A stretch of 35,115 nucleotides of DNA from Candidatus Omnitrophica bacterium CG1_02_40_15 (GTDB taxonomy: Bacteria; Omnitrophota; Gorgyraeia; Gorgyraeales; Gorgyraeaceae), in contig MNVP01000085.1 in assembly GCA_001871815.1 (NCBI GenBank), positions 1 through 35,115 of the forward strand, written 5' to 3'. The position numbers were made by a program, and so were the translations under genes. The notes beneath the pieces were generated by a model that had not been told where the DNA came from, made no database searches, and worked only from the letters and a program-made list of their open reading frames with translations. Below, piece by piece: positions 743-32,979 of the stretch; within the stretch, counting starts at the first letter, position 1; every line of letters begins with the position of its first letter.

Positions 743-806
743 CAAATTTTGCGAAGCAAAATTTGATCCCGAGCCGCCTTAGTTTTTACTATCGAGCGGC
801 GAGGGA
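743..806. repeat. Two adjacent hairpins: GCGAAGC-capped palindrome and a tandem-GA hairpin overlapping alr 3' end
   Basis: CAAATTTTGC-GAA-GCAAAATTTG (743-765); TCCC-GA-GCCGC...GCGGC-GA-GGGA (767-806), which contains the alr stop. Confidence 0.8.
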
Positions 807-1919
807 CCTTTTATAAATCCTTGGAACGCGGTGGCCTATATTGCATAACACCTCGTAAGGTATCGTATTTATAAGCCTGGCCAGTTCTTCCGCTCTTATG
901 ATCTCATCACCCTGGCTGCCTATGAGAACCACCTCATCGCCTACTCTTACATTTTCTAAATGCCCCACATCTACCATGCACATATCCATACAGACCCTGC
1001 CCACTATTGGACAACGACTTCCACGTATTAAAACTTGAGCTTTATTTGAAAAATGCCTTGAATACCCATCGCCATAACCAACAGGTATTGTAGCTATCTT
1101 TGTAAGCTTAGAGGTCATATAAGTCATGCCATAACTTATACTGCGGCCCTTTGGCATTGATTTCAGATAAGTGATCTTTGTTTTTAAAGCGAGGGCCGGC
1201 TTTAAAAGTATATTTTTCATGAGGCTTTCTTTAGGGTATATGCCGTACATCATAAGGCCTGGCCTGACCATATTCATATGGCTATCTTTAAAATTTATAA
1301 GGGCAATGCTATTTGCAGTATGTTTTATAGGTATATATATGTTATTATCCCATAGCTTTTCTATAAGCCGCTTAAAATTCCCTATCTGGTTATAGGTGAA
1401 AACCTTGTCAGCCTCCGCATTTGGAAAATGCGTAAAAATCCCATCTATAATAATATTTTTTAACCCGGCTATTTTTTTTATAAATCCTATTGCCTCCTCG
1501 TGCCAGAATCCAAGACGGCCCATGCCCGTATCTATCTTCACGTGCACCTTTACTTTTTTATTCCTGGACTGGGCAAGCTTGGAAAGCCTCCTAGGGATAT
1601 CCATGTCAGAAACTGTCTGGATTACGTTGAACCTAAGAACGCCTTCTATTTCTTCGGGCAAAATAGCGCCTATGACAAGTATCGGTTTTTGTATCCCTAT
1701 CCTGCGCAATATAGCTGCTTCATCAAGAGATGCAACGCCAAAATAATCAATATAATCCTCAATTGTCTTTGAGACTTCCTTTATCCCATGGCCGTAAGCA
1801 TCTGCTTTTACGACCCCGAGTATCTGGGTATCGCTCTTAACAATATGTCCGACTATCTCCAGATTATGGCGGATGGCATCGAGATCTATTTCTGCAAATG
1901 TAGGCCTGTAGTATTTCAT
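789..1919 (-). CDS. alr: Alanine racemase
   Basis: VVKADAYGHG PLP-lysine motif, KIDTGMGRLG, PVGYGDGY, GRVCMD, TIPYE. Confidence 0.97.
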   Translation of the reverse strand: MKYYRPTFAEIDLDAIRHNLEIVGHIVKSDTQILGVVKADAYGHGIKEVSKTIEDYIDYFGVASLDEAAILRRIGIQKPILVIGAILPEEIEGVLRFNVIQTVSDMDIPRRLSKLAQSRNKKVKVHVKIDTGMGRLGFWHEEAIGFIKKIAGLKNIIIDGIFTHFPNAEADKVFTYNQIGNFKRLIEKLWDNNIYIPIKHTANSIALINFKDSHMNMVRPGLMMYGIYPKESLMKNILLKPALALKTKITYLKSMPKGRSISYGMTYMTSKLTKIATIPVGYGDGYSRHFSNKAQVLIRGSRCPIVGRVCMDMCMVDVGHLENVRVGDEVVLIGSQGDEIIRAEELARLINTIPYEVLCNIGHRVPRIYKRSLAAR

Positions 1920-1935
1920 GTTTATAGCATTGTTT

Positions 1936-1988
1936 TAGCATATAGCGTTTAGCGTATAGAGAAACTAAACGCTATACGCTATCCGCTA
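1936..1988. repeat. Family A heptamer-array hairpin (TAGCGNN)n/(NNCGCTA)n
   Basis: tagcata tagcgtt tagcgta tag-agaaa-cta aacgcta tacgcta tccgcta. Encodes the tsaB end (SG*). Confidence 0.9.
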
Positions 1989-2809
1989 TATTTTACTTGA
2001 CAATCTTCTGGATACAGATATAAAGGACTGAGTTTATCCAGATTTGTTTTTTTAGCTTTTTTGATACTTCGACGGCGCCAAACCGCAGTCTTTAGGCCGC
2101 GAACAGAAGCGCCGCTCAGTATCAACCCTGAGCCTGTCGAAAGGTTGATTTTCGAGAAACCAAGCTTTATAAGATTCCCAGCTCCTGGATACCAGTATTC
2201 TTCAAGCAAAAATGCCGACTGGCGTTTATTTTTTGCCTGCCTGCCGGCAGGCAGGCTTAATTCCGCAAAGGCTTTTACGGAATCTTGATTAATATAATTT
2301 GCTATTTTGTCTCCATAAAGACTTAGCCCATCCCCTAGAAAAACAGAATCTCTTTTTACTTTCTTCAAAAACTTTTCTATGGGCAATAGCAAATAATCTG
2401 ATAACCTCGCTACCTTGCTGCCTTTTCTCCTGTAAATAGCAGCATAAACCTGGCCCCTTTTTGCATCTATTATAGGAATAATATATCTGTCTTTTCCCTG
2501 GGCATTACAAGCAATGGAATCCATGCTAGCCACGCCGATGCATGGCTTCCCTGAGGCTATGCCAAAACCTTTTATCGTGCTGACACCTATCCTTAGCCCG
2601 GTAAATGAGCCTGGGCCAAGGCCTATTATAAAAGCGCCTATCTTATTTATAGGCGTTCTGGATTTTTTTAGGAGCTCTTTTACCTTTGGCACCAGCTGGC
2701 TGGCTTGCCTTCTATCAAGTAAATGAGATTCTTCTCTTATTATATCTTCATCTTCGCTCAATGCAATGCTCAGAAATTTTGAACTTGTATCAATGCCTAA
2801 GATCTTCAA
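1979..2809 (-). CDS. tsaB: tRNA threonylcarbamoyladenosine biosynthesis protein TsaB, with two palindromic in-frame inserts
   Basis: MKILGIDTS, GPGSFTGLRIG, IDAKRGQVY, PLYL. 276 aa, longer than usual; adjacent to tsaE. Confidence 0.93.
   Translation of the reverse strand: MKILGIDTSSKFLSIALSEDEDIIREESHLLDRRQASQLVPKVKELLKKSRTPINKIGAFIIGLGPGSFTGLRIGVSTIKGFGIASGKPCIGVASMDSIACNAQGKDRYIIPIIDAKRGQVYAAIYRRKGSKVARLSDYLLLPIEKFLKKVKRDSVFLGDGLSLYGDKIANYINQDSVKAFAELSLPAGRQAKNKRQSAFLLEEYWYPGAGNLIKLGFSKINLSTGSGLILSGASVRGLKTAVWRRRSIKKAKKTNLDKLSPLYLYPEDCQVKYSG
2061..2149. repeat. In-frame REP-like doublet inside tsaB
   Basis: TTGATAC-TTCG-ACGGCGC...GCGCCG-CTCA-GTATCAA followed by ATCAACCC-TGAG-CCTGT-CGAA-AGGTTGAT. 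Read as INLSTGSGLILSGASVRGLKTAVWRRRSIK. Confidence 0.85.
2235..2292. repeat. Second in-frame palindromic insert inside tsaB
   Basis: Perfect 22-bp palindrome GCCTGCCTGCCGGCAGGCAGGC (2235-2256) plus hairpin ATTCCG-CAAAGGCTTTTA-CGGAAT. Read as INQDSVKAFAELSLPAGRQA. Confidence 0.8.
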
Positions 2810-3209
2810 TGATTACCTTTCTCTTGTTATCGCCTTTTATCTTTAATCTCACAGATATATGCTTTTCTGGCAAAATGGATTTTATCTTTTCCGCCCATTC
2901 TATTACAGTAACGCCGTTTCCATAAATATATTCTTCTATGGCCAGATTTTCTATTTCCTTTAAATCATCCAGCCTGTATAAATCAAGATGGTATAGCGGA
3001 ATTCTTCCATTGTATTCCTTTATCAAAACAAATGTTGGGCTATTTATGCGCTTAGGATCTTTCACGCCAAGGCCTTTTCCAATGCCTTTTGTAAAAGTAG
3101 TCTTGCCGCTTCCCAGATCGCCTGAAAGCGCAATTATATCCCCTGGTCTCAGTTTCCTTGCCAGCTTCTCGCCAATTAACATTGTTTCCTTAGCGCTATT
3201 CGTTATCAT
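2790..3209 (-). CDS. tsaE: tRNA t6A biosynthesis ATPase TsaE
   Basis: GDLGSGKTT Walker A, SPTF, HLDLYRL, IEWAE. Confidence 0.96.
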   Translation of the reverse strand: MITNSAKETMLIGEKLARKLRPGDIIALSGDLGSGKTTFTKGIGKGLGVKDPKRINSPTFVLIKEYNGRIPLYHLDLYRLDDLKEIENLAIEEYIYGNGVTVIEWAEKIKSILPEKHISVRLKIKGDNKRKVIIEDLRH

Positions 3210-3223
3210 GCTTCAATATCATT

Positions 3224-3299
3224 CTTCTCGAATTCGCTCGAAGAATAATATTGTTCGAGCGAATATCCTGACTATACATGTAAGCCCAGTCGAGAACTA
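3224..3299. repeat. Family C element (CTTCTCGA..CGCTCGAAGAATAATATTGTTCGAGCG..AGTCGAGAAC)
   Basis: Core identical to the copy at 23496-23598; the left arm is minimal. Confidence 0.88.
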
Positions 3300-4202
3300 T
3301 TAGAAATGAGTAAACCCACTAGGTTTAATTTTCTCTAATTTCCCATTCTTTCTTGCAAGAAAAAACCCTTTATGTATATCGCGTATTTGACCAATTCTAG
3401 AAAGCCTTGTTTCAAACGGCCATATATCCTCCAACCTATCTGCATGCTTCTCAGGTAATGTGAAAATTAATTCGAAGTCTTCGCCATCCCTCATAGCTGA
3501 ATTAAAATCTATGGCATCCTTAGAAACAGGCATTGTTTTTTCATAGATCACTGCGCCTTTATCGCTTTCTTCTAATATATGCCCCAGGTCAGCTAAAAGG
3601 CCGTCGGATATATCTATCATTGAATTAATCTTAAAATTTTTTACTAAAAACCTCGCTTCTTCAAGCCTAGGAGTAAAATTAAGGTGCTTAAGCTTTATTG
3701 AACCGCCTATATTTCCGGTAACAAATATAGCGTCTTTTTCCTTAGCCTTGCTTCTTAACGTTAAATTTTTTATTTCTACTTCTCCGATAAGCGCAATATT
3801 AATAATTATCTTGTTAGAACCAACTGTATCCCCGCCTACTAAATCAACGCTAAACCTGTCTGCAACTTTTCTTATACCCCTATATATCTCATCAGCGTAT
3901 TTTAAATCCAGAGACCCTGGAAAACCTATTGAAATAACTGCAAATTTAGGTATGCCTCCCATTGCTGCAATGTCGCTTATATTTGAAGAAAGGGCTTTTT
4001 TCCCCACCAATCTAGCCGAAGAACCTTTATAAAAATGTTTCCCCTCTAAGAGCATATCTGTTGTAAAAAGCAGGTATTTATCTTTTGTATATTTTAAAAC
4101 AGCTGCATCATCGCCTATGCCTTTTACAACCCGGTTGGACAATCTTATTGCCTTGCTTATCCTGTTTATAAAATTAAATTCTCCTAAATCTTTTAATCTC
4201 AT
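3300..4202 (-). CDS. thiL: Thiamine-monophosphate kinase
   Basis: GIGDDAA, NISDIAAMGG, GGDT, IDISDGL, GEDFEL. Confidence 0.95.
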   Translation of the reverse strand: MRLKDLGEFNFINRISKAIRLSNRVVKGIGDDAAVLKYTKDKYLLFTTDMLLEGKHFYKGSSARLVGKKALSSNISDIAAMGGIPKFAVISIGFPGSLDLKYADEIYRGIRKVADRFSVDLVGGDTVGSNKIIINIALIGEVEIKNLTLRSKAKEKDAIFVTGNIGGSIKLKHLNFTPRLEEARFLVKNFKINSMIDISDGLLADLGHILEESDKGAVIYEKTMPVSKDAIDFNSAMRDGEDFELIFTLPEKHADRLEDIWPFETRLSRIGQIRDIHKGFFLARKNGKLEKIKPSGFTHF

Positions 4203-6377: not shown

Positions 6378-6393
6378 CTCTTTGCCAAGTTCA

Positions 6394-6434
6394 AACAACT
6401 TTACAAACCAACAATGTCAAAATGTAAAGTTGTT
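6394..6434. repeat. Intergenic inverted repeat overlapping the CPBP stop
   Basis: AACAACTTTACA-N17-TGTAAAGTTGTT, 12-bp arms. Confidence 0.7.
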
Positions 6435-7458: not shown

Positions 7459-7465
7459 AATAATA

Positions 7466-7496
7466 TAGCGTATAGCGGATAGCGTTTAGCGTATAG
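7466..7496. repeat. Family A heptamer array, single arm
   Basis: tagcgta tagcgga tagcgtt tagcgta tag; no complementary arm. Confidence 0.85.
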
Positions 7497-7499
7497 AAA

Positions 7500-9415: not shown

Positions 9416-9430
9416 ATTTTGCTCCTCCTT

Positions 9431-11823: not shown

Positions 11824-11963
11824 AACTGAAACCACCAATGCATTTTAACATATCGAGAGTGGTTTCAGTTACCCCGAGCAAGCGAAGCGCGTCGAGGGGT
11901 TACCCTTCGACTACGCTCAGGGTAAATGCGCCATATGTTAAAGTGCAATTGTGGGCGCATTTA
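11824..11963. repeat. Composite of four hairpins including a tandem-GA doublet
   Basis: AACTGAAACCAC/GTGGTTTCAGTT; ACCC-CGAG-CAAGCGAAGCGCGT-CGAG-GGGT; TTACCC-TTCG-ACTACG-CTCA-GGGTAA; TAAATGCGCC/GGCGCATTTA spanning the holB stop. Confidence 0.85.
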
Positions 11964-13542: not shown

Positions 13543-13723
13543 TTTGTGCTGGGGCCATTCGGCACAGAGATGGTTTCGCCGTGCGCTACGGTTTACGGTT
13601 CGTTTTTTATACTGTAGGTAGCCTTGACAGTATAAAAAACTTCGCCGTAACCCCTTGCGCACCTATATTTAAAGAATCCATTATGCCGAAACCTCTCAAA
13701 TGTGCCTCAGGCCCCAGCGCAAA
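13543..13723. repeat. 181-bp nested imperfect inverted repeat between cysS and tmk
   Basis: Nested stems: TTTGTGCTGGGGCC/GGCCCCAGCGCAAA, TTCG-GCACA/TGTGC-CTCA, GGTTTCG/CGAAACC, GTGCGC/GCGCAC, TTACGG/CCGTAA, TTTTTTATACTGT/ACAGTATAAAAAA. Confidence 0.85.
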
Positions 13724-15599: not shown

Positions 15600-15626
15600 A
15601 TGTACCTCCACTAGAACAGCATGTTA

Positions 15627-15710
15627 TAGCGAATAGCGTATAGCGGATAGCGGATAGGTCTTTTTGCATGGAATTTTTTCTATACGCTATCCGCTCTACG
15701 CTAAACGCTA
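15627..15710. repeat. Family A heptamer-array hairpin with 22-nt spacer
   Basis: tagcgaa tagcgta tagcgga tagcgga tag-GTCTTTTTGCATGGAATTTTTT-cta tacgcta tccgctc tacgcta aacgcta. Supplies the ispD end (SV*). Confidence 0.9.
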
Positions 15711-16405
15711 TAACACTTATTTCTTCTTTTTTCAATAAGTATCTTTGCTAACTCTAAATCTTCTCTTGTCGTAATTTTTATATTGCTGTAAGAACCCATT
15801 ACAATCTTTGGTTTCACCCCGATTCTTTCTACAAGGCTAGAATCATCTGTTGCAATAATTTTTTTCTTCCTGGCAATTTTATACGCCTTTTCTATCAGAT
15901 CCTTTTTGAAAACCTGAGGCGTCTGAGCTTCCCAAAAATATTTCCTTAAAGGGGTATTTTTGATAAAACCATCTTTGCCTACAAATTTCAAAGTAGGCTT
16001 CACAGGAACAGCTGCTACCGCAGCCCTGAACATGGACGCCTCTCTTAATAACGTTTCGATAAGTTCATTTGTAATAAAAGGCCTTATGCCGTCATGGATT
16101 AAAACATAATCTATATTTCCTGAAACAGCCCTTAGCGCGTTGTAAACAGAATCGCTGCGTTCCTTGCCTCCGATCACAAGCCTTGCCTTTTTAATATTAT
16201 ACTTCTCGATTATTTCTTTCCGGGCTTTATTTAATTTATCTTTTCCTACGCTGACCCATATCTCGGCTATATCTTTGTTTTTGGAAAGCGCTATTAAGGT
16301 GCGAGCAAGTATGGGTTTATCGCCAAGAGTTATGTAAGGTTTTTGTATCCTTGATCTTAATCTGGCGCCTGTACCTGCGCTCGGGACAATAGCTGCTACT
16401 CTCAT
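15701..16405 (-). CDS. ispD: 2-C-methyl-D-erythritol 4-phosphate cytidylyltransferase
   Basis: AGTGARL, GGKERSDSV, HDGIRP, QTPQVF, TDD, NIKITT. Confidence 0.95.
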   Translation of the reverse strand: MRVAAIVPSAGTGARLRSRIQKPYITLGDKPILARTLIALSKNKDIAEIWVSVGKDKLNKARKEIIEKYNIKKARLVIGGKERSDSVYNALRAVSGNIDYVLIHDGIRPFITNELIETLLREASMFRAAVAAVPVKPTLKFVGKDGFIKNTPLRKYFWEAQTPQVFKKDLIEKAYKIARKKKIIATDDSSLVERIGVKPKIVMGSYSNIKITTREDLELAKILIEKRRNKCYSV

Positions 16406-16414
16406 AAATTCAAA

Positions 16415-16475
16415 AAGCTATAAGCCGTAAGCTATAAGTTTTAAGCTTAAAACTTATAGCTTATAACTTAAAGCT
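16415..16475. repeat. Family A' heptamer-array palindrome (AAGCTNT type)
   Basis: aagctat aagccgt aagctat aagtttt aagctt aaaactt atagctt ataactt aaagct. 16428-16463 is a perfect 36-bp palindrome. Confidence 0.88.
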
Positions 16476-16490
16476 AAATTTTTTGACTTT

Positions 16491-17525: not shown

Positions 17526-17578
17526 AGCTGGAAGTTTTAAGCTGTAAGCTTTAAGCTTATGGCTTATAACTTAAAGCT
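17526..17578. repeat. Family A' heptamer-array palindrome, second copy
   Basis: agctgg aagtttt aagctgt aagcttt aagctt atggctt ataactt aaagct; same AAGCTT centre and ataactt aaagct tail as the first copy. Confidence 0.85.
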
Positions 17579-17583
17579 GATTT

Positions 17584-18315: not shown

Positions 18316-18341
18316 TTTACCCCCTTTATATTACATGCTAT

Positions 18342-18456
18342 CGCTGAACTACGCAGAACTTAACGCGGAATTACGCTGAAACTACATGCTAATTTCCGCG
18401 TTTTTCCGCGTCTGCTCCGAGTAAAACTAGGAGCAGCTTCTGCGTTATTCCGCGAT
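18342..18456. repeat. Family D decamer-array hairpin (ACGCNGAA units)
   Basis: Four (A)CGC[TAG]GAA units, then four TTC[CT]GCG units with inserted hairpin CTGCTCC-GAGTAAAACTA-GGAGCAG. Matches 31040-31180. Confidence 0.87.
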
Positions 18457-18458
18457 TA

Positions 18459-19208: not shown

Positions 19209-19213
19209 ATTCT

Positions 19214-19290
19214 TAGCGTAGAGCGTTTAGCGTATAGCGTATAGGGATAATAGCTATTATTATCCGCTATACGCTCTACGCTATCCGCTA
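19214..19290. repeat. Family A heptamer-array hairpin
   Basis: tagcgta gagcgtt tagcgta tagcgta tag, palindromic spacer ATAATAGCTATTAT, then tccgcta tacgctc tacgcta tccgcta. Last CTA is the ruvB stop. Confidence 0.9.
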
Positions 19291-20328
19291 AAACAACTCT
19301 TTCTGCGCTTCCTTTTTATACGGCACCTTTAAATGATCGTATGCCAGTTTTGTAACTTCCCTGCCCCTTGGCGTCCGCTTAAGAAATCCTATTTTCAATA
19401 AAAACGGCTCCACGACATCTACTATGGTATCGCTCTCTTCATTCAGGGTTGCGGCAAGCGATTCTATGCCCACCGGCCCACCGTCATAAAAATCAATTAT
19501 TGCTTTCATGACTTTTCTATCTATGTCATCCAGGCCCGCGTTATCTATCCTGTGCGACGCAAGGCCGGCAATAGCAATCTCCTTGTCTACCTTCTTATTG
19601 CCTTTTACTTCGCTGTAATCCCTTACTCTTCTTAAGAGCCTGTTGGCTACGCGGGGCGTGCCGCGCGAACGGCTCGCAATCTCAATAGCTGCGTCTTCAT
19701 TAAGAGGTATATTTAAAAGTTCTGCGGACCGCTCTATTATTTTTACCAGGTCATCCGCCTCATAAAATTCAAGGTGGTAAAACATGCCGAACCTGCTTCT
19801 TAAAGGCGCGCTCAATAATCCTGCGCGGGTTGTAGCGCCGATAAGCGTAAATCTTTTTAAATTGAACTTTATGGTCTTTGCGTAAGGCCCTTTATCTATA
19901 AGAAAATCTATCTGAAAATTTTCCATAGCAGGGTATATAAATTCTTCTACAACCTTTGACAGCCTGTGAATCTCATCGATAAAAAGTATATCTCTCTCGC
20001 CAAGATTAGTAAGAATCCCTATAAGATCTCCTGCCCTTTCTATAGCGGGCCCTGAGGTAGCGGTAATCTTGGCTCCCATCTCGCGGCTTATGATATGGGC
20101 AAGCGTTGTCTTTCCCAACCCAGGGGGGCCTGAAAGCAGAATATGCTCAAGGCCTTCTTTTCTTTTTTTTGCCGCCTTTATTGCGATATTTACATTTTCG
20201 ATTACATGCTTCTGGCCTATAAAATTCTTGAAACTGTCAGGCCTCAAGGAAATATTACATACTGCCTCTTCCTCTGCTTCCTGGCCGGTAATCAGTCGTT
20301 CGCGATCGTCTTTATTATTTTCTATCAT
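19288..20328 (-). CDS. ruvB: Holliday junction branch migration helicase RuvB
   Basis: SLRP, GPPGLGKTT, FIDEIHR, GATTRAG, RGTPR, RTPRGR. Confidence 0.97.
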   Translation of the reverse strand: MIENNKDDRERLITGQEAEEEAVCNISLRPDSFKNFIGQKHVIENVNIAIKAAKKRKEGLEHILLSGPPGLGKTTLAHIISREMGAKITATSGPAIERAGDLIGILTNLGERDILFIDEIHRLSKVVEEFIYPAMENFQIDFLIDKGPYAKTIKFNLKRFTLIGATTRAGLLSAPLRSRFGMFYHLEFYEADDLVKIIERSAELLNIPLNEDAAIEIASRSRGTPRVANRLLRRVRDYSEVKGNKKVDKEIAIAGLASHRIDNAGLDDIDRKVMKAIIDFYDGGPVGIESLAATLNEESDTIVDVVEPFLLKIGFLKRTPRGREVTKLAYDHLKVPYKKEAQKELF

Positions 20329-20338
20329 ATACCTTTAT

Positions 20339-20415
20339 TAGCGTATAGCGTAGAGCGTTTAGCGGATAGGTCTTTTTGCATGGAATTTTTTTTATACGCT
20401 CTACGCTAAACGCTA
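20339..20415. repeat. Family A heptamer-array hairpin with the same spacer as the 15627 copy
   Basis: tagcgta tagcgta gagcgtt tagcgga tag-GTCTTTTTGCATGGAATTTTTTT-ta tacgctc tacgcta aacgcta. Last CTA is the ruvA stop. Confidence 0.9.
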
Positions 20416-21042
20416 TTTTTTAGACTTCTGTTTGTACACCTCATTCAGAAGATCCTCTGCTGTCTTTATCTCCGGATTGCGTTTTAATGCTTCATCCAGC
20501 ATATTTTTGGCTTCGAATTTTTTATACTGTAGCTGCAATAAAACGCCCATTGCCTCTTCTTCTATCCCATGCTTGAGCGTAAAGGCTCTAGCTCCATTTC
20601 TAGTATCCTGGATAAGCCCGAATTTTCCCACCTTACCCTGAAGTTTTGCCACAATCTCTCTTGCTCTCTGCTCTCCAATGCCGGGCAGGGACTTTAAAAA
20701 AGGCACATCGGCCGTATCGATTGCCTGGGCAATCATGGATATAGGCATCTTCAATGCCCTTACAGCAGCCTTTGGCCCGATACCTGACACTGTTATAAAC
20801 TTTTCAAAAAATTCTTTTTCTATTTCATTCAGAAAACCTATCAGGCATTGGAACCCTTTGGATGGTTCCAGCTGAAAATAATGGTATGTGATAAGAGAAA
20901 TAACCCCATCCGGTTGTACGCTATTTTCAAGGCATTGCATCACAGCGCCTGGAATAAATACTTCATAACACATCCCATTTACATCCAGCAATATTGACTC
21001 TTCTTTTTTTTCTAATAACTTACCTGTAATTCTGCAAATCAT
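20413..21042 (-). CDS. ruvA: Holliday junction DNA-binding protein RuvA
   Basis: MICRITG start, VSGIGPK and LPGIG HhH motifs; between ruvC and ruvB. Confidence 0.92.
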   Translation of the reverse strand: MICRITGKLLEKKEESILLDVNGMCYEVFIPGAVMQCLENSVQPDGVISLITYHYFQLEPSKGFQCLIGFLNEIEKEFFEKFITVSGIGPKAAVRALKMPISMIAQAIDTADVPFLKSLPGIGEQRAREIVAKLQGKVGKFGLIQDTRNGARAFTLKHGIEEEAMGVLLQLQYKKFEAKNMLDEALKRNPEIKTAEDLLNEVYKQKSKK

Positions 21043-22311: not shown

Positions 22312-22315
22312 AATT

Positions 22316-22490
22316 AATGAGCGCTTGACTTATGGAGCGAGTAAAACGAGCGAACATAAGTCAATGCGCGAATTAATCCCGCCCTTTTGAATAGCAAGCT
22401 GAGAAACCTTGCTAAAAGGGCGGGATAAGTTCGGACAAATAAGTTACGTCACATACTTCTTGGAATAGGGCTCCGTAACTTATGTCCTCA
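22316..22490. repeat. Family B three-hairpin element, copy 1
   Basis: AATGAG..TTGACTTATG/CATAAGTCAA..CGAATT, then ATCCCGCCCTTTT..AAAAGGGCGGGAT, then TTCGGAC..ATAAGTTACG/CGTAACTTAT..GTCCTCA. Confidence 0.92.
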
Positions 22491-22491
22491 C

Positions 22492-23484
22492 TTAAAATCT
22501 CTTTTTATGCTCTATGCCAAAAAATTCTTCATTTTCTTTTAATTTCATCTGAAATACCTGGCCATTATCCAGCTTGTATTCCAGGCTCATCTCGTCCAGA
22601 TTGTCCCTTTTTTTATAAGGGGGCAATTCTTCTCTAGCGAATGTCTTAAACCCAACTGATACCTTGTCGCCGATATCCTTAACCATCTTAAGGCTATCGT
22701 AGCCATCTTTACTTATATCCCAGCCGTCCCATACTATTGTTTTCATATCAGACTTCAGTTTTATGTAACTCAGGAGATCAGAGCCCACAACATTTCTCAG
22801 GTCTATATAACCTTCCATTGTAAAAGTAGCCTGAGCCTGCTTGATCCTGGAAGCCACTATGTTGATTATAGGCCCTATGCCCTGTATTCTTATATCAGCG
22901 GAATCATACCATATAGGGCCTATCTTCCCAGATCTAGAGCTTATAAAACCGCTTGATTGGAGGTTATTGAGCGGGCCTTTTATATTGAAAAGTCCGTTCA
23001 TGACGCCAGTCACAACGCCTGGCCTTTTTGCCTTTGTCATTATTGCAATATCTTTTAAGTTCGCCCTGAGTATTTCAAAATATATATTTGTTTCAAACTG
23101 CTTTTTTAATCTTACAGTGCCTTTTAAACGATATGCATTTCCAAAATTCAGAGAATAGGCCTCAAACTTATCTTTTGTAAGCTTGAAGAATACCTTTAAA
23201 TCCGGCAACGCGCTTGAATTTATGGTCATATTGCTGGAATAAAGTTTCCCAGTCAGGCCATTATCTTTTAACACCTTGGCCTTTAAAATAAAATTGCCGG
23301 ATAGGATCGCGCCTTTAATATCCAGATTGTCTATTTTTAATTCTGAAACCAACTCTTTATTGTCAAAGAGATAAAGATTCAGAGAAACTGCTTTATCGAT
23401 TCCTAAATCTATCGCTCTGGCGCTGGCTGTAACAACAAAGATTGAGCTTGCAGCCAATGCTATGATCTTTAAATTATATTTCAT
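22492..23484 (-). CDS. Exported beta-rich hypothetical protein (possibly AsmA/TamB-like)
   Basis: 330-aa ORF in operon orientation; signal peptide-like N-terminus (ASARA); alternating hydrophobic/Gly beta pattern; C-terminal Phe. Family assignment is inference. Confidence 0.7.
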   Translation of the reverse strand: MKYNLKIIALAASSIFVVTASARAIDLGIDKAVSLNLYLFDNKELVSELKIDNLDIKGAILSGNFILKAKVLKDNGLTGKLYSSNMTINSSALPDLKVFFKLTKDKFEAYSLNFGNAYRLKGTVRLKKQFETNIYFEILRANLKDIAIMTKAKRPGVVTGVMNGLFNIKGPLNNLQSSGFISSRSGKIGPIWYDSADIRIQGIGPIINIVASRIKQAQATFTMEGYIDLRNVVGSDLLSYIKLKSDMKTIVWDGWDISKDGYDSLKMVKDIGDKVSVGFKTFAREELPPYKKRDNLDEMSLEYKLDNGQVFQMKLKENEEFFGIEHKKRF

Positions 23485-23495
23485 ATATAAACATG

Positions 23496-23598
23496 TACTT
23501 CTCGACTCTGCTCTCTTGATATGCTATCGTGACCGCTCGAAGAATAATATTGTTCGAGCGGACGTCATTGCCATACTTGTAAGTTCAGTCGAGAACTA
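23496..23598. repeat. Family C element
   Basis: TACTTCTCGACT-arm1-CGCTCGAAGAATAATATTGTTCGAGCG-arm2-AGTCGAGAACTA. Confidence 0.9.
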
Positions 23599-23605
23599 TC
23601 TGTAA

Positions 23606-26062: not shown

Positions 26063-26078
26063 GATCAAACCCTCCTTA

Positions 26079-26138
26079 TAGCGTTTAGCGTATAGCGGAT
26101 AGGAAAACTATACGCTAAACGCTATACGCTATCCGCTA
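26079..26138. repeat. Family A heptamer-array hairpin
   Basis: tagcgtt tagcgta tagcgga tag-gaaaa-cta tacgcta aacgcta tacgcta tccgcta. Confidence 0.9.
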
Positions 26139-26146
26139 ATCATTTA

Positions 26147-27196: not shown

Positions 27197-27208
27197 GAAT
27201 CCTCCTTC

Positions 27209-27376
27209 AATGAGCACTTGACTTACGGAACAAGCATAGCGAGTGAACGTAAGTCAATGCGCGAATTGAATCCCGCCCTTTTGAATAGCAAGTTGAGAAA
27301 AATTGCTAAAAGGGCGGGATAAATTCGGACAAATCACTTACGGAAACCATAGGTTTCCGTAAGTGATGTCCTTATT
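27209..27376. repeat. Family B element, copy 2
   Basis: Same architecture; third hairpin ATCACTTACGGAAACC-ATA-GGTTTCCGTAAGTGAT; abuts the mcsA stop. Confidence 0.92.
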
Positions 27377-27872
27377 TATTATTCTTCTTCTCTAATTCTC
27401 TTATCTTATCCCGCAGTTTCGCTGCTTCTTCAAAATCCTCTTTCTGTATTGCCTTCTGAAGTTTTTCCTTCAAGGCATCGAATTCATTCTTTGCCTTGAC
27501 TATCTTGACTATTTTTTTAGGGGATTTGCCATAGTGCTGCGTGGACCCGTGTATCCTTTTTAAAAGAGGGGCGAGCGCTTCTTTAAAAGCATTATAGCAT
27601 TCGCCGCAGCCAAGCCTTCCCACCTTTTTAAAATCTTCATAGGTAAGCCCACACTTAGGGCATTTAAGCTTAGGCTCTGTTTTTGTTTTATTGAACTGCG
27701 TGCCAAGATCAGCGAGGCCTGCCAAAAGATCAGAAAGCCCGAAATGGCTTTCCATTTGGGCGCCTTTTTTCTGAGCGCATTCTTCGCACAGATGCAGCTC
27801 TGTTATTTGTTCATCTATTATTTCTGTAAGATGCACTGTAGCCTGGCTCTTGCCGCATATATTGCAAACCAT
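27372..27872 (-). CDS. mcsA: McsA (UvrB/UvrC-motif zinc-binding activator of McsB)
   Basis: Four CxxC motifs, GRLGC, IHG..H.GK, EDFEEAAKLRD; ATG 27872 with AAGGAGG SD. Confidence 0.94.
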   Translation of the reverse strand: MVCNICGKSQATVHLTEIIDEQITELHLCEECAQKKGAQMESHFGLSDLLAGLADLGTQFNKTKTEPKLKCPKCGLTYEDFKKVGRLGCGECYNAFKEALAPLLKRIHGSTQHYGKSPKKIVKIVKAKNEFDALKEKLQKAIQKEDFEEAAKLRDKIRELEKKNNK

Positions 27873-27885
27873 TATTTCCTCCTTC

Positions 27886-28091
27886 AATGAGCACTTGACT
27901 TACGGAACAAGCATAGCGAGTGAACGTAAGTCAATGCGCGAATTGAATCCCGCCCTTTTGAATAGCAAGCTGAGAAAAATTGCTAAAAGGGCGGGATAAA
28001 TTCGGACAAATCACCCAGCACCTTTTTAATATTCAGCATCTTTTCTTTAAAAACTTTAAATACATAAAAGGTGCTGGGTGATGTCCTCATT
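27886..28091. repeat. Family B element, copy 3
   Basis: One mismatch to copy 2 over the shared part; third hairpin ATCACCCAGCACCTTTT..AT-rich loop..AAAAGGTGCTGGGTGAT. Confidence 0.92.
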
Positions 28092-28963
28092 TAATATTTT
28101 ATGCCATCCGTCTTTGTTAATTTTCTGAATTCCTTCATCAGATTTAATGTAATTTTCCCTGGTTTTCCGTCTCCGATAACCCTTTTGTCCACGCGCACAA
28201 CAGGTATGATCTCTGCCGCAGTGCCTGTAAGAAAACACTCGCTAGCCGTAAAAATATTATGCCTTGTAATTACTTCTTCTTTTACTGCCATGCCAATCTT
28301 CTTTGCAATATCCATCACGCACGCCCTTGTAATGCCTTTAAGTATCCCGAGATAAGCAGGCGGAGTGATCAGGTTATTATCTTTTATAATAAAAATATTA
28401 TCTCCTGTGCATTCTGCCACATATCCATGGGCGGTAAACATTAATGCCTCTTCATATCCGCAGTTTAATGCCTCTATTTTTGCAAGAATATTGTTAAGGT
28501 AATTCAGAGATTTAATCTGAGGATTTAATGCCTCTGGTATATTCCTTGGCGTAGGCACTGTAATAATGCTCAATCCTTCCTTGTACATCTTTTCAGGATA
28601 AAGCTTTATGTTATCTGTAATGATAATAATAGAAGCGGACTTGCACTTCCTTGGATCCAGGCCCAGATCCCCTATGCCTCTTGTAACAATAAGCCTGATA
28701 TAGGCATTGTCCAGCTGATTTAATTTAAGCGTTTCCACGATTGCCTTTATCATGTCTTCTTTGGAAAGCGAAATATTTAGCATGATGCCTTGACTAGACT
28801 CGTAAAGCCTGTCTATATGCTCCTTTAATTTAAAAATAAGCCCAGCATATGAGCGGATGCCTTCAAACACTCCGTCGCCGTACAAAAGCCCGTGGTCAAA
28901 AACAGAAATCTTTGCCTCGTTTTTCTCAAAATATTCACCATTAATATAAACCTTTAATCCCAT
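28091..28963 (-). CDS. ilvE: Branched-chain amino acid aminotransferase
   Basis: DHGLLYGDGVFEG, KSLNY, LKGITR, FLTGTAAE, GKPG. Confidence 0.94.
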   Translation of the reverse strand: MGLKVYINGEYFEKNEAKISVFDHGLLYGDGVFEGIRSYAGLIFKLKEHIDRLYESSQGIMLNISLSKEDMIKAIVETLKLNQLDNAYIRLIVTRGIGDLGLDPRKCKSASIIIITDNIKLYPEKMYKEGLSIITVPTPRNIPEALNPQIKSLNYLNNILAKIEALNCGYEEALMFTAHGYVAECTGDNIFIIKDNNLITPPAYLGILKGITRACVMDIAKKIGMAVKEEVITRHNIFTASECFLTGTAAEIIPVVRVDKRVIGDGKPGKITLNLMKEFRKLTKTDGIKY

Positions 28964-28976
28964 ATCTCCTCCTAAT

Positions 28977-29096
28977 GTTCTCGACTCGCTTCGTACATTC
29001 GCTTCGCTCAGTACTTCTTTCGGTCGCTCGCTCGAACAATATTAATATTCTTCGAGCGGTCACGAGAGCATATCAAGAGAGTAGAGTCGAGAAGTA
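28977..29096. repeat. Family C element, inverted relative to 23496
   Basis: Arm GTCACGAGAGCATATCAAGAGAGTAG is the near reverse complement of arm1 at 23508-23533. The other arm contains a nested TTCG-CTTCG-CTCA unit. Confidence 0.9.
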
Positions 29097-29098
29097 AA

Positions 29099-29773
29099 TT
29101 ATATTATTCTCCCATCCTTCATTTCTACAATTCTATCCGCTCTTCGCGCTATTTCTTTATCGTGAGTAACAATCACAATCGCTGTTTTATTCTTTTTATT
29201 AAGATTAAACAATATATTCAATATCTCCAGGCCCATTTCAGAATCCAGGTTACCTGTAGGCTCATCGCACAAGAGCACCTTTGGATTATTTATCAAGCCC
29301 CTTGCTATAGCAACTCTCTGCTGCTCTCCTCCTGAAAGTTCGCTCGGCCTGTGGCGCATTCTTTTCCCAAGCCCTACATCTTCCAGTAAAACCTCAGCTC
29401 TATTTTTCGTCGTTCGTCGTTCGTCGTTCGTGTTTCGTATGCCTATCAGACTAGGCAGCATTACATTTTCCAATGCTGTAAAATCAGGGAGCAGGTAATA
29501 AAATTGAAATACAAATCCTATTTTTTGATTTCTAAACCTGGCTCTTTTAATATCATCCAGGCTGTAAAAATCAGAGTTGTCCAGAAATACTTTACCCGAG
29601 CTTGGCTTATCTATGCCGCCCAATATATGCAAAAGCGTTGACTTACCGGCTCCTGAAGGCCCTACAATTGTAATTACTTCATCTTTTCTTAATTCTAAGC
29701 TAACCCCCCTTAAAACATGCAGCTCTCTTTTGCCATCTTTATATATCTTATGTACATTATCAGCTCGTAACAT
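29099..29773 (-). CDS. lolD: Lipoprotein-releasing ABC ATPase LolD
   Basis: GPSGAGKS, IGFVFQF, LSGGEQQRV, DEPTGNLD, VTHD; downstream of lolC/E. Confidence 0.88.
   Translation of the reverse strand: MLRADNVHKIYKDGKRELHVLRGVSLELRKDEVITIVGPSGAGKSTLLHILGGIDKPSSGKVFLDNSDFYSLDDIKRARFRNQKIGFVFQFYYLLPDFTALENVMLPSLIGIRNTNDERRTTKNRAEVLLEDVGLGKRMRHRPSELSGGEQQRVAIARGLINNPKVLLCDEPTGNLDSEMGLEILNILFNLNKKNKTAIVIVTHDKEIARRADRIVEMKDGRII
29406..29440. repeat. Heptamer array inside lolD
   Basis: ttcgtcg ttcgtcg ttcgtcg ttcgtgt ttcgtat (5x7 nt), read as IRNTNDERRTTK. Confidence 0.85.
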
Positions 29774-29778
29774 AATAT

Positions 29779-29831
29779 TAGCGGATAGCGGATAGAAAAA
29801 CTATACGCTATACGCTCTACGCTAAACGCTA
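29779..29831. repeat. Family A heptamer-array hairpin
   Basis: tagcgga tagcgga tag-aaaaa-cta tacgcta tacgctc tacgcta aacgcta. Confidence 0.9.
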
Positions 29832-29835
29832 TCTT

Positions 29836-31017
29836 TTACTCATATCTCAGAGCTTCCACTGGCTCCATCTTAGCTGCCTGCCATGACGGATAAAGCGTTG
29901 ATAATAAACTTATCAGTATTGCCGCAGCTATTACAATTATTGAATCCGACAGCTCCAGATTAACAGGCAGCCTGTCTATGTAATAAATGTCTTTTGGCAA
30001 TTTTATAAATTGATATGTCTTTAATAAGTAACATAGGCCAAAACCTCCTATGGCGCCAATAATCGTTCCTGCGAAACCTATCAGAAAACCATCCAGCATA
30101 AATATCTTTCTTATGCTTTTATTATTAGCTCCTATTGATTTAAGGATGCCTATATCTTTTGTCTTTTCCATAACCATCATGATGAGAGCGCTGGCTATAT
30201 TAAAGCACGCCACAACCACAATGAGCGCAAGTATTATGAACATGGTTATTTTCTCTAGTTTCAGGGCGCTGAATAGATTTTTATTCAACTCTGACCAGCT
30301 TCTTACCCAGTAATTAAACCCTATCTGCTTCTGAACATCTTTTTTTATGCGGTCTGCGCTGTTTACATCATCCACCCGCACGCCTATGCCGCCTGCTACA
30401 TTGCCGGTAGCATAAAAATTCTGGGCGCCTTCAAGATTTGTAAATATAAGGCTCATGTCATATTCAAACATGCCTGAATTAAAGACACCCGCTACTTTAA
30501 AAAGCTTTGGTTTAGGATCCGCGGCAGATATCAGGGAAATTGTATCTCCTATCCTTAAACCCAGCCTAGAAGAAAGCTCTTTTCCTATCAAGACTGTATC
30601 CTTTTTAAGATTGAGCGTTCCTGATTCCATGTATTTTTGTATATTAGTGACATCTTTTTCTCTCGCAGAGTCTATGCCTCTTAATATTACGCCAAGGACT
30701 TGTTCGTCCTGCCTTATTAGGGCCTGGCCGTTCAGAAAAGGAGAGCTTGCTTTTACGTGCTGTATCTTATTTATCTCGTTCACAAGGCCGTTATAATCAG
30801 GGATGCCGCCTTCTTTTTCAATTATTATATGCGAATTTGTGCCGACTATCTTTTCACGAAGGTCTTTGTCAAAGCCGCTCATAACAGCCAACACCACAAT
30901 AAGGGCTGTTACACCCACAGCCACGCCCATTATCGAGATAAAACTTATAATGGAGATAAATTTTTCTTTGCGCTTCGAGACTAGATATCTAAAACTAATC
31001 CACAATTCGTATGGCAT
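29836..31017 (-). CDS. lolE: Lipoprotein-releasing ABC permease LolC/E
   Basis: ISFRYL, AVMSGF, VACFNI, EKTKDIGILK, PVEALRYE; lysS-lolC/E-lolD order. ATG 31017 preferred; the track start lies in a repeat. Confidence 0.88.
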   Translation of the reverse strand: MPYELWISFRYLVSKRKEKFISIISFISIMGVAVGVTALIVVLAVMSGFDKDLREKIVGTNSHIIIEKEGGIPDYNGLVNEINKIQHVKASSPFLNGQALIRQDEQVLGVILRGIDSAREKDVTNIQKYMESGTLNLKKDTVLIGKELSSRLGLRIGDTISLISAADPKPKLFKVAGVFNSGMFEYDMSLIFTNLEGAQNFYATGNVAGGIGVRVDDVNSADRIKKDVQKQIGFNYWVRSWSELNKNLFSALKLEKITMFIILALIVVVACFNIASALIMMVMEKTKDIGILKSIGANNKSIRKIFMLDGFLIGFAGTIIGAIGGFGLCYLLKTYQFIKLPKDIYYIDRLPVNLELSDSIIVIAAAILISLLSTLYPSWQAAKMEPVEALRYE

Positions 31018-31039
31018 CTTATAGTTAGCTTCCGTGTTT

Positions 31040-31180
31040 AATCGCGGAACCACGCGGAAGCTGGCCTTCACTTCGTTCAGGCCAGACGCTGAACTACGCG
31101 GAAATTCGAGTTCAGTTTCCGCGTTTTTCCGCGTCAGTTGCGAGTGAAACGAGCAACTGCTTCTGCGTATTTCCGCGATT
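31040..31180. repeat. Family D decamer-array hairpin, full symmetric copy
   Basis: AATCGCGGAA..ACGCGGAA[CTGGCCT-TC-AC-TTC-GT-TC-AGGCCAG]ACGCTGAA..ACGCGGAA / TTCCGCGT..TTCCGCGT[CAGTTGC-GA-GT-GAA-AC-GA-GCAACTG]TTCTGCGT..TTCCGCGATT. Confidence 0.9.
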
Positions 31181-32623
31181 TCATGCTTCTGGTTTTAATT
31201 GCGGGAACAAAATCACATCCCGTATAGACGGCTGGTTTGCAAAAAGCATTACCATCCTGTCTATCCCTATACCAAGCCCGCCCGCGGGCGGCATTCCGTA
31301 TTCCATGGCCCTTACAAAATCCTCATCTATTTTCTTTACGCCTTCCTGGCCCACTAACTGTTCTTCAAATCTTTTTTTCTGCTCTATTGGGTCATTGAGC
31401 TCTGAATAAGCGTTTGCAATCTCCATGCCTCCCATGAAAAGTTCAAATCTGTCTGTTAAAAGAGGATTGTCTTTTTTCCTTTTTGCGAGAGGGCATAACT
31501 CTGCGAATAAGTCTATTACAAAAATAGGCCTATCGCCTGTCTCAGGCTCAAGCATTTCTGTTATGATATTGGCTATCTGCGAACGTGTAATGTCCTTGGC
31601 TTTAAAATCCACGCCTTTAGCATGAAGCTTTTCGATCCATTCCTTGGAAGAGTCATCAGGGTTAATGTCAAATCTCTTTTTGATCTCTTCTGCAAATGAC
31701 CATCTCGGCCATGGCGGAGTCAAGTCTATAACCACATCTGCGAATTTTATCTTATTAGTCCCCAGGACTTCGTTCGCAACAAAATTAAAAATCTCTTCTG
31801 TAAGCTGCATCATGCCCTGGCAGTCAGAATAAGCTTCATATATTTCTATCATTGTAAATTCAGGATTATGCCTTATTGAAATGCCTTCGTTCCTGAAATT
31901 CCTATTAAGCTCATAAACTTTATCAAATCCGCCAACTAATAATCTTTTTAAATATAATTCCGGCGCAAGGCGCAGAAATAAATCAATACTAAGAGCATTA
32001 TGATGCGTCTTAAAAGGCTCTCCTGCTGCACCTCCTGCCATTGATTGCATCATAGGGGTTTCAACTTCCAAAAATCCCTTTTTATCTAAAAGCTCTCTTA
32101 TTTTTGAGATGATGCGGCTTCGAACCTGGAAAACCTTGCGCACATCTTCATTTACTATCAAATCCACATATCTCTGCCTGTATCTTGTATCCACATCTTT
32201 CAAGCCATGCCATTTTTCAGGTAAAGGCCTTAGGCCTTTGCTTAGAATTGTAATCTTTTCTGCGTTTATAGTTATCTCGCCAGTATGTGTTTTAAAAATC
32301 TTTCCCTCAACACCTAATATATCTCCTATATCTAGTCTTTTAAATATATTAGCATATATATCCTTGCTTATAATATCTGCCTTAATATATACCTGAATCC
32401 TGGAACTTGCGTCTCTTAAATCAAAAAAACTAGATTTCCCATGTTCTCTTAATGCAGTGATGCGGCCTGCTGTCTGGACAGAATCGCCTTCTTTGGCATT
32501 CTTAAGCATTGTTTCTATACTGCAATGCTTATCAAATCTTCTCCCATACGGCTCAATGCCTATCTCTTTGAGAGCATTTAACTTATCAATGCGTTGTTTC
32601 ATGAATTCATTCATCTCTTCCAT
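31181..32623 (-). CDS. lysS: Lysine--tRNA ligase (class II)
   Basis: LPEKWHGL, RYRQRYVDL, EVETP, FRNEG, HNPEF, YGMPPAGGLGIGIDR. Confidence 0.98.
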   Translation of the reverse strand: MEEMNEFMKQRIDKLNALKEIGIEPYGRRFDKHCSIETMLKNAKEGDSVQTAGRITALREHGKSSFFDLRDASSRIQVYIKADIISKDIYANIFKRLDIGDILGVEGKIFKTHTGEITINAEKITILSKGLRPLPEKWHGLKDVDTRYRQRYVDLIVNEDVRKVFQVRSRIISKIRELLDKKGFLEVETPMMQSMAGGAAGEPFKTHHNALSIDLFLRLAPELYLKRLLVGGFDKVYELNRNFRNEGISIRHNPEFTMIEIYEAYSDCQGMMQLTEEIFNFVANEVLGTNKIKFADVVIDLTPPWPRWSFAEEIKKRFDINPDDSSKEWIEKLHAKGVDFKAKDITRSQIANIITEMLEPETGDRPIFVIDLFAELCPLAKRKKDNPLLTDRFELFMGGMEIANAYSELNDPIEQKKRFEEQLVGQEGVKKIDEDFVRAMEYGMPPAGGLGIGIDRMVMLFANQPSIRDVILFPQLKPEA

Positions 32624-32625
32624 AG

Positions 32626-32680
32626 AGATCCTTCGTCGCGGAGTTTACACTGAGCGAAGCGAATGTGCTCCTCAGGATGA
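32626..32680. repeat. AGATCCTTCG..CTCAGGATGA tandem-GA element with nested unit, directly upstream of lysS ATG
   Basis: ATCC-TTCG...CTCA-GGAT enclosing CAC-TGAG-CGAAG-CGAA-TGTG, which contains GCGAAGC. Confidence 0.82.
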
Positions 32681-32792
32681 GCAGCCGACATTACAAGAAA
32701 ATCGCTTTCAGCGATAACCCTAATATACGATTTTCAGTGGTTAGGAAAGTGTTTTATACTTTCCTATACCATAAAAACTCCTCAACTCCTCA

Positions 32793-32822
32793 ATTATATA
32801 TTATTATGCTATATAGTGTCAA
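32793..32822 (-). promoter_or_regulatory. Sigma70-type promoter of the lysS gene block
   Basis: Minus strand TTGACA (32822-32817)-18 nt-TATAAT (32798-32793); both hexamers are exact consensus. Confidence 0.8.
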
Positions 32823-32846
32823 TAGAAATAGGGTAAAAATAGGGCG

Positions 32847-32979
32847 AGATCCTTCAGATGCTCCTGTTCGTCGCATCTTCAGGATTAATTCGCACTTATC
32901 AGTTACGGATTTCAAAGAAACCCGTAACTGATGTGCTCATTAAAAAACCGCGTAGGCACCACATACATCCTATGCGGTT
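32847..32979. repeat. Three adjacent hairpin elements, including a solo family-B half unit
   Basis: AGATCCTTC-AGATGC..GCATCT-TCAGGAT; AATTCGCAC..ATCAGTTACGG/CCGTAACTGAT-GTGCTCATT; AACCGCGTAGG/CCTATGCGGTT. Confidence 0.8.

Follow-up and report, generated by a model that had tools for sequence, protein, structure and literature searches.

Tandem G·A loops and GNA triloops recur across hairpin repeat families of an Omnitrophota genome

Why are repeat families with unrelated stems interrupted by the same mismatch, and in which nucleic acid would the resulting fold act? This question is raised by a contig of Candidatus Omnitrophica bacterium CG1_02_40_15 (MNVP01000085.1, positions 1 to 35,115). 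We analysed it at its full length of 35,115 nt and refer to it as the window; it is contig C87 of our study genome, G000. G000 comprises 1.17 Mb in 92 contigs, is ~80% complete, and its assembly is fragmented at repeats. A first-pass annotation of the window had described hairpins that share tandem G·A mismatches and GNA triloops in opposite-strand pairs, and had attributed them to a structure-specific enzyme that recognises single-stranded DNA (ssDNA) or cruciforms. Our data lean modestly towards a related reading. GA/GA loops and GNA triloops would be real, selected features of several non-autonomous mobile palindromic families that have newly colonised the junctions between stop codons and ribosome-binding sites, and their fold would act in ssDNA. 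These families would be of the repetitive extragenic palindrome (REP), bacterial interspersed mosaic element (BIME) or REPIN type, or of the miniature inverted-repeat transposable element (MITE) type.

We surveyed G000 genome-wide for hairpins in which two non-pairs lie between helices of 4 or more Watson-Crick pairs each and the loop measures 3-40 nt, a census that is blind to G·T pairs and bulges. We observed 866 such hairpins, compared to 590 ± 25 in 20 dinucleotide shuffles of whole contigs. GA/GA (40) and its complement TC/TC (40) were the two commonest loop types, 80 hairpins compared to 3.3 and 3.1 in the shuffles (maximum 7). GA/AA and AA/GA with their complements came next. When loops were widened to 85 nt, we counted 118 GA hairpins, compared to 13-26 in the shuffles. 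Because whole-contig shuffles do not model repeats, the count by family is the one that matters, and because copies of one repeat are not independent, we collapsed hits by their 10-nt local context. (An earlier single-linkage clustering by shared 11-mers merged 517 of the 866 hits and was set aside.) GA/GA then accounted for 5 of the 18 contexts with at least three copies and 8 of the 44 with at least two, against a share of ~1% in the shuffles. The five are WART-GA-GSAC, TCCC-GA-GCNN, CAGC-GA-GTTT, TGGT-GA-GTTC and TACG-GA-GTCC; the third and fourth come from the same family, so ~4 of the contexts are independent. The enrichment over shuffles proposed as a test by the first-pass annotation (80 vs ~6) thus survives the collapse to families. 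Its claim that families with unrelated stems share a YGAR-type GA/GA motif also holds, for at least four contexts with unrelated flanking stems.

The GNA triloops gave a more graded result. Mini-modules of the form N-GA-N, 1-3 bp, GNA, 1-3 bp, N-GA-N occurred 63 times, compared to 8-18 in the shuffles, and 43 of the 63 carried Y-GA-R on the 5' arm. In the window, YGAGYGNARCGAR was present 3 times where 0.04 were expected. Loops had been described as often GAA, and C-GAA-G triloops were indeed in excess (29 vs 7.8; all C-GNA-G, 57 vs 15-31). This enrichment is modest, however, and the triloops CaatG (71 vs 12.9) and CcagG (52 vs 6.1), both from perfect-palindrome repeats, were more enriched. 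GCGAAGC lies at 751, 11882 and 32654 as had been noted, but the bare heptamer was not enriched in the window (8 vs 5.1; 17 of 100 shuffles reached 8).

The main family is an inverted doublet, made of a hairpin unit (S), a variable central hairpin and an inverted unit (A). S units have the ends TAAGTGAGG...CCGAACTTA, and A units, on the other strand, the ends TTAATGAGC...GCGAATTAA. Units are 58-97 nt long and nested, with second GA loops and GNA tips, and the composites are mosaics with exchangeable centres. Of 41 relatives sampled over the whole class, which are not independent of each other, 21 had the A pattern; the S pattern was seen in 18, from within the family and order. As a control, the same patterns reversed gave 0 matches in the relatives. 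More than 111 loci came from metagenome-assembled genome (MAG) records titled Omnitrophota, and the named public records with the repeat were almost all Candidatus Omnitrophota.

When any base was allowed at the four mismatch positions of the S pattern, it matched 68 distinct loci, which a count by hand divides as follows: 62 GA/GA, 4 AA/GA, 1 GA/TA, 1 GA/GG and 0 Watson-Crick. Because the flanking bases are fixed by the pattern, this count shows only that the mismatch is not repaired. The internal helices vary widely between copies yet remain complementary. Across 17 A units, all 63 nt long and drawn from different records, pairing was seen in 99% of cells, compared to 24-36% in slid controls. 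Compensatory changes were present in 10 of 23 pairs, and 0 of 500 shuffles reached the observed values. At the 2+2 bp tip helix all 4 pairs covaried (in 7, 1, 8 and 8 of the 17 units) around an invariant G·A/A·G, and a wider set of 23 A-unit sequences gave the same covariation picture.

We assessed on which strand the GA motif lies. When two non-nested GA hairpins were neighbours within 200 nt, they mostly occupied opposite strands (18 of 21 pairs), and in 16 the sense-GA unit came first, so that in many elements each DNA strand carries one folded unit, as the first-pass annotation had it. Nor was the motif strictly on the transcribed strand, a placement that it had taken to indicate an RNA motif: the GA strand of the outermost GA hairpins was sense in 35, antisense in 50 and not assignable in 26. 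Orientation was fixed by family, with S units sense (20/20), A units antisense (28/29) and the F2 family (TCCC-GA-GC) antisense (12/12). At loci of other MAG records, A units were antisense in 53 cases and sense in 9, with 56 not assignable. The first-pass annotation had also proposed to test orientation relative to transcription and replication. The two are not separable in G000, where strand bias is extreme and 94% of the coding bases lie on the majority strand of their contig; GC skew points to that strand as well in 91 of 92 contigs, and a single unit is found among genes of the minority strand. Two-strand symmetry had further been taken as an argument for an enzyme, but it follows from the build of the elements as inverted doublets (as in BIMEs and REPINs, or with terminal inverted repeats).

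The carriers are mobile. Three genomes of the same genus have contigs syntenic with the window, and the pieces aligned to one of these, G005, are 86-96% identical. We observed that 19 of the 30 junctions comparable with G005 were at least 35 nt longer in G000, 1 was longer in G005 and 10 were alike. At the same junctions in the relatives, the stop codon is followed within 2-19 nt by a Shine-Dalgarno sequence and an ATG, or the genes overlap; the G000 insertions are located between the stop codon and the next ribosome-binding site. The insertions are a very recent, genome-wide burst. By our own reading, about a third of the 19 carry the GA motif. Junctions with a G000-specific repeat include 29774-29835, 26069-26146, 23485-23605, 18316-18458 and 3210-3299.

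The site at 22312-22491 is empty in 7 of 10 same-genus genomes, with 9-15 nt from stop to ATG. Two others (G011 and G007) hold S..A composites with different centres, and in one genome an unrelated repeat occupies the site. Runs X1 and X2 contain a relative's contig in which 22311 is joined to 22491. Direct repeats flank the insertion 11839-11937 (TTA) and the G007 composite (TTAAG); the other junctions were without clear duplication. The start of the S unit serves as the upstream stop codon, either as TAA at nt 1-3 (16 of 26 S-type rows) or as TGA at nt 5-7 (6 of 26). Unrelated repeat families also start exactly at the upstream stop codon, in the window at 22492-22494, 3297-3299 and 20410-20412. 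Among 1025 gene ends, the starts found at the stop codon were TAGTTCTCG (15), TAAGTGAGG (12), TAGGGACAG (9), TAGCGTATA (7) and TAATCGCGG (6). Some elements replace the stop codon and extend the open reading frame (ORF), for example by 6 codons at 789-806.

Because the GA motif is not confined to the transcribed strand, the tips covary, G·U pairs are unbiased and the carriers are mobile, we prefer, though not strongly, a single-strand fold at the DNA level over an mRNA motif. The covarying GA tip is located on the strand antisense to the genes, and on the pyrimidine strand a tip of 2+2 bp would be unlikely to fold. We counted G·U pairs in the predicted helices of 116 A units: 66 fall on the GA strand and 76 on the opposite one, so the strand bias that selection for an RNA fold would leave is missing. 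A hairpin would be kept stable in one single strand by the tandem G·A pair and by the G·A-closed GNA triloop. By breaking a perfect palindrome, the mismatches would also make the two strands unequal; the G·A mismatch pair probably stabilises and orients the folded strand. Such a fold may be read or needed at an ssDNA stage, during mobilisation or replication, and not in mRNA.

Several results weigh against this reading. Most GA/GA matches come from one superfamily, so that their recurrence may partly reflect shared ancestry or module exchange. Because the search patterns fixed the outer 9-11 nt of the pattern-collected unit sets, conservation there is partly circular; gene positions are our own greedy longest-ORF calls, made with no gene finder. 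Every family has a fixed orientation to genes, in which the directions of replication and transcription are confounded. The S units are on the mRNA strand, where they would be able to fold as RNA too. RNA parameters made the GA strand the more stable one, by ~3 kcal/mol per unit and by 6-7 kcal/mol in window units, and with DNA parameters the strands differed by at most 1.6 kcal/mol. We draw no conclusion from these nearest-neighbour energies because such models miss mini-hairpin stability: according to a review, the stability of d(GCGAAGC) greatly exceeds model predictions, and the DNA form is more stable than the RNA form (PMC13037366).

The candidate enzymes also count against it. No PF01609, PF13358 or PF07282 candidate matched the unit ends or their distribution, REP-associated tyrosine transposases (RAYTs) were rejected on the repeats that flank them, and the structure-specific enzyme of the first-pass annotation was not found among these candidates. 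G000 encodes two Y1 HUH proteins whose best model is the RAYT (63 and 56 bits; NCBIfam cut-off, 80), and we rejected both as readers of the GA units since perfect palindromes of other families flank both genes. The RAYT-like gene of the type on contig C63 was flanked by GTAG-tagged perfect palindromes, GTAGGG...CCCTAC, at 6 of 6 loci in six genomes. The type on C3 and its 92%-identical G011 orthologue were flanked by CTCAAGACCWGGTCTTGAG palindromes. Among the 6 C63-type and 20 C3-type loci, we found no cognate RAYT flanked by GA units save for two GA hairpins at G000's own C63-type locus (L009) and one of 25 nt near a single C3-type locus (L159). PF01797 occurred in 37 of 41 relatives and does not discriminate. 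GA units do not carry the GTAG (or CGTC) foot tetranucleotide; they start with TAAGTGAG or TTAATGAG, and GTAG was found on a separate perfect-palindrome family (window 235-263). PF01609 transposases were rejected as well: they occur in 6 of 41 relatives, not including the unit-rich G007, G011 and G022, and in G000 the three genes of this family have ends unlike those of the units. TnpB (PF07282) and IS630-type (PF13358) proteins were not found in the ~80% complete G000. IS110-like fragments at three contig ends scored below the cut-off and adjoin AAAGGAG, not GA units.

The rival explanation that survives best, though we consider it unlikely, is that the hairpins act in mRNA, in 3'-end protection, decay or translation control, with the antisense copies as by-products of the doublet. 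The S units fit this account, given their start at the stop codon in 22 of 26 rows (16 + 6) and their sense GA strand in 20 of 20, as do the 6-7 kcal/mol by which RNA parameters favour the GA strand in window units. The elements also sit inside co-directional gene strings without terminator-like tails, and REPs have been described as regulators in the 3' untranslated region (bioRxiv 10.64898/2026.03.23.713779). Against an RNA function stand the antisense GA strand of the A units (28/29) and F2 (12/12), the antisense position of the tip helix that covaries around the tandem GA, and G·U counts that are raised on neither strand. We observed no Rfam match at the gathering score, and a permissive threshold gave only sub-threshold miRNA-like hairpins (E up to 1). 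Kink-turns were rejected, as no bulge lies next to the G·A and the loops are symmetric 2x2 between Watson-Crick helices. So were intrinsic terminators, with 21 sites compared to 14.1 ± 4.3 in shuffles, only one of them in a unit, and units without T tracts. A promoter scan gave no excess. One metatranscriptome run contained 5% of the words and yielded a single contig, on part of one gene, which does not bear on the elements. The earlier proposal of an ssDNA fold in place of an mRNA function is favoured, not strongly, by the antisense GA, the covariation, the unbiased G·U and the mobile carriers, with the RNA role kept as the unlikely alternative just described.

Less likely again is shared ancestry without selection on GA, in which related modules (TGAGCGAAGCGAA, and ends of the form TWARTGAG...CGAAYTWA) were copied and nested and the grammar hitch-hiked from founders. 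The largest context cluster holds 63 of the 118 hits, and one 13-mer is present in three settings: in a C-family copy, at 32651, and within A units from a different genome. The mosaic build of the composites, with centres that can be exchanged, fits this account too, and an insertion sequence (IS) lies inside one A unit. Descent of this kind is, however, at odds with at least four contexts with unrelated flanking stems (TCCC-GA-GC, CAGC-GA-GTTT, TACG-GA-GTCC and WART-GA-GS). GA is constant although the closing pairs and the stems next to it covary, mismatch variants are purine-purine only (Watson-Crick, 0/68), and the mini-module has compensated variants, among them CGAATGAAATGAG and CGAACGAAGTGAG.

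Improbable, finally, are double-strand MITEs of a DDE transposase, with the S/A outer arms as terminal inverted repeats, TTA/TAA as target-site duplications and the inner arms as subterminal sites in which GA/TC only tells inner from outer: TTA and TTAAG do flank insertions, the ends are two-fold symmetric and G000 encodes three PF01609 transposases, but clean duplications occur at two sites only and at none of the other junctions, no autonomous element with unit ends was found in G000, PF01609 was not found in unit-rich relatives, and the internal-stem covariation and the 2+2 bp GA tips would go unexplained.

A bolder version of the preferred reading, of selected GA features in mobile families that fold as ssDNA, can be put forward only tentatively and is itself unlikely. 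Tandem sheared G·A pairs and GNA triloops might be the recognition code of an ssDNA-reading machinery other than RAYTs. This machinery would drive a phylum-wide Omnitrophota 'hairpin mobilome' at stop-codon/Shine-Dalgarno junctions and could fill most operon junctions of a genome within the divergence time of congeners.

We compared the repeats with known systems. MITEs, such as the Correia type, are small non-autonomous insertions with inverted ends and short target direct repeats. The elements described here resemble them in their small size, inverted ends and presence/absence differences between close relatives, a polymorphism that we observed at orthologous sites. They differ in that no matching autonomous IS was found, the internal stems covary, and clear target duplications occur at two sites only. 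The d(GCGNAGC) mini-hairpin and the Py-GA-Pu tandem sheared G·A are physico-chemical motifs known from phage origins and promoters. The C-GNA-G triloops and Y-GA-R tandem mismatches are of the same kind, but here they recur as building blocks of chromosomal mobile repeats.

Escherichia coli REPs carry a conserved 2x2 stem mismatch that is needed for strand-specific ssDNA binding by TnpA-REP (PMC3479197, PMC8266576). The Omnitrophota repeats share with E. coli REPs and BIMEs the many short imperfect palindromes after genes, here extragenic and in high copy, the mosaics of alternating orientation (inverted doublets here) and a 2x2 mismatch that breaks strand symmetry. Unlike them, the mismatch is a tandem G·A, where the E. 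coli form described there is AA/GC, and the units are 58-97 nt long and nested, with second GA loops and GNA tips. REPINs are described as inverted REP doublets with compensatory changes and an extragenic distribution (PMC3116915). Those features and a spacer are common to both, but each unit here is a long hairpin, the doublet has a fixed gene polarity and starts at a stop codon, and no cognate RAYT was found. In IS200/IS605 ends and integron attC sites, the strand is chosen through irregularities in the folded single strand (PMC8266576). IS200/IS605 end hairpins lie on the same strand, in contrast to the GA units of a composite, which lie on opposite strands. The genes on either side here are of housekeeping type and keep their synteny, unlike integron cassettes.

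REP-, BIME- and MITE-like repeats and the use of stem irregularities for strand choice are thus already known. What appears to be new is a conserved tandem G·A/GNA building block common to several mobile hairpin families: the open-access literature searched contained no description of tandem G·A motifs in bacterial repeats or of Omnitrophota repeats. The families offer a test bed for non-Watson-Crick motifs that make the strands of a palindrome unequal. They also provide a dated, very recent burst (19 of 30 junctions filled that are empty in an 86-96% identical relative) and a class-wide repeat family in an uncultured phylum. For annotation, they matter in that they supply stop codons, lengthen ORFs and break assemblies.

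We folded the places in the window for which the motif had been listed. The typical form is a symmetric 2x2 loop, 5'-GA-3' facing 5'-GA-3', flanked by Watson-Crick helices. It was confirmed at 767-806, 2061-2147, 11872-11925, the units of the B family, 31061-31159, 32648-32667 and 32849-32943, but not at 13551-13715 or in two C-family copies. The three composites of the main family supply the B units. In the first, the A unit (22314-22376, GA on +, antisense; TTAAT-GA-GCGC...GCGC-GA-ATTAA) ends in the tip module C-GA-G-T-AAA-A-C-GA-G, and a central GC-rich hairpin at 22377-22425 differs in content between genomes. Its S unit (22426-22494, -, GA strand sense; TAAGT-GA-GGAC...GTCC-GA-ACTTA) has as its first TAA the upstream stop codon. 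The second composite (27207-27378) is missing in G005, G011 and G001. It consists of an A unit at 27207-27269 (+), a centre at 27271-27319 and an S unit at 27320-27378 (-), which reads AA/GA. The third (27884-28093) has an A unit at 27884-27946 (+), a centre at 27948-27996 and a long S unit at 27997-28093 (-).

The tip module also links families, as the first-pass annotation had noticed for C-GA-GT-RAA-AC-GA-G in B and D. Beside the tip of 22314-22376, it forms the D-family mini-hairpin C-GA-G-T-GAA-A-C-GA-G at 31135-31159 (+, antisense strand). The opposite D-family arm, at 31061-31085 (-, sense strand), carries C-T-GA-A-C-GAA-G-T-GA-A-G, and a D-family variant at 18414-18434 (+), C-GA-G-T-AAA-A-C-TA-G, reads GA/TA. 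A different mini-module, GTAC-T-GA-G-C-GAA-G-C-GA-A-T-GTAC at 28993-29014 (-), lies inside the C-family copy 28975-29100. It is the only GA module among the C copies, all of which had been credited with the motif: the CTCGA/TCGAG strings at 3235 and 23534 pair in Watson-Crick fashion. At 32648-32667 (+), the mini-module CAC-T-GA-G-C-GAA-G-C-GA-A-(T)-GTG has one bulged T.

Other GA hairpins are distributed along the window. A GAA-triloop hairpin with a perfect 10-bp stem (743-765, +; GCGAAGC at 751-757) lies within a G000-specific insertion. Next to it is an F2 unit, TCCC-GA-GCCGC...GCGGC-GA-GGGA (767-806, GA on +, antisense to the genes), with the upstream gene's stop codon in its loop. Refolding from the sequence placed a T-GA-G/C-GA-A hairpin at 2061-2125 (GA on -); its opposite-strand partner is the small hairpin CAACC-C-T-GA-G...C-GA-A-A-GGTTG at 2123-2147 (+). 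The adjacent pair at 11872-11925 has one unit per strand, 11872-11899 on + (GCGAAGC at 11882) and 11900-11925 on -, and lies within an insertion of ~140 nt with TTA direct repeats on either side. Two abutting GA hairpins occupy the same strand (-) at 32849-32943, refolded as 32849-32885 and 32885-32943, with the sequences ATCCT-GA-AGATGC...GCATCT-GA-AGGAT and TTAAT-GA-GCAC...GTGC-GA-ATTAA.

The 'E' hairpin element of 165-170 nt (13551-13715, -; also delimited as 13548-13718) has an asymmetric outer TGA/GAAT purine loop, where a clean 2x2 GA loop had been placed at 13558/13706. Other 'E' copies have a central C-GA-G/C-GA-G loop, and the centre of the window copy differs. Many G007 and G011 copies match the element at 87-96% identity, while the syntenic genes of G007 are only 74-87% identical. 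This excess of identity suggests either recent spread between genomes or strong constraint.

The commonest hairpin family of the window is heptamer-periodic and without the GA motif. Its arms are tandem 7-nt units, (TAGCGNA)n and (TAAGCTN)n, and are perfectly complementary. Copies lie at 1929-1990, 7462-7499, 15622-15715, 19213-19296, 20337-20416, 26072-26140 and 29778-29835, and at 16409-16478 and 17526-17581.

Some observations concern units and mobile elements elsewhere in G000. At C40:4670-6200, a PF01609 insertion sequence lies within a long A unit whose inner hairpin has been swapped for a TCCCGCCCTTTT-type hairpin; the elements are therefore nested. Long A units at C66:7863-7943 and C58:4703-4783 contain, in sense orientation, a purine tract such as AAGGAGGTTG. 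In a few long A units an ATG follows the tract, which would give a possible mini-ORF ending at the unit's terminal TAA. A GTAG palindrome or a decayed copy of it is present inside the reading frame of the C63-type RAYT at 6 of 6 loci (L002, 1672-1700 in C63; L010-L014). At least three IS110-like copies run off contig ends (C91:8670-8920, C16:5410-5656 and C21:1-230) and start after a gene end at AAAGGAGATACA.

Intergenic regions in G000 number 703, with a median of 114 nt. The window genes are nearly all on the - strand and of housekeeping type, among them GreA, alanine racemase, TsaB, and Met-, Cys- and Lys-tRNA ligases, together with a ClpB/C-type ATPase and an FtsX-type permease. Upstream of the Lys-tRNA ligase gene there is a perfect TTGACA-18-TATAAT (12/12) at 32793-32822 (-), a short distance downstream of the GA hairpins at 32849-32943. 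At 33001-33509 (-), an ORF for a ParE-family toxin (83 aa) overlaps an 85-aa ORF with no Pfam match, and the two are likely a toxin-antitoxin pair.

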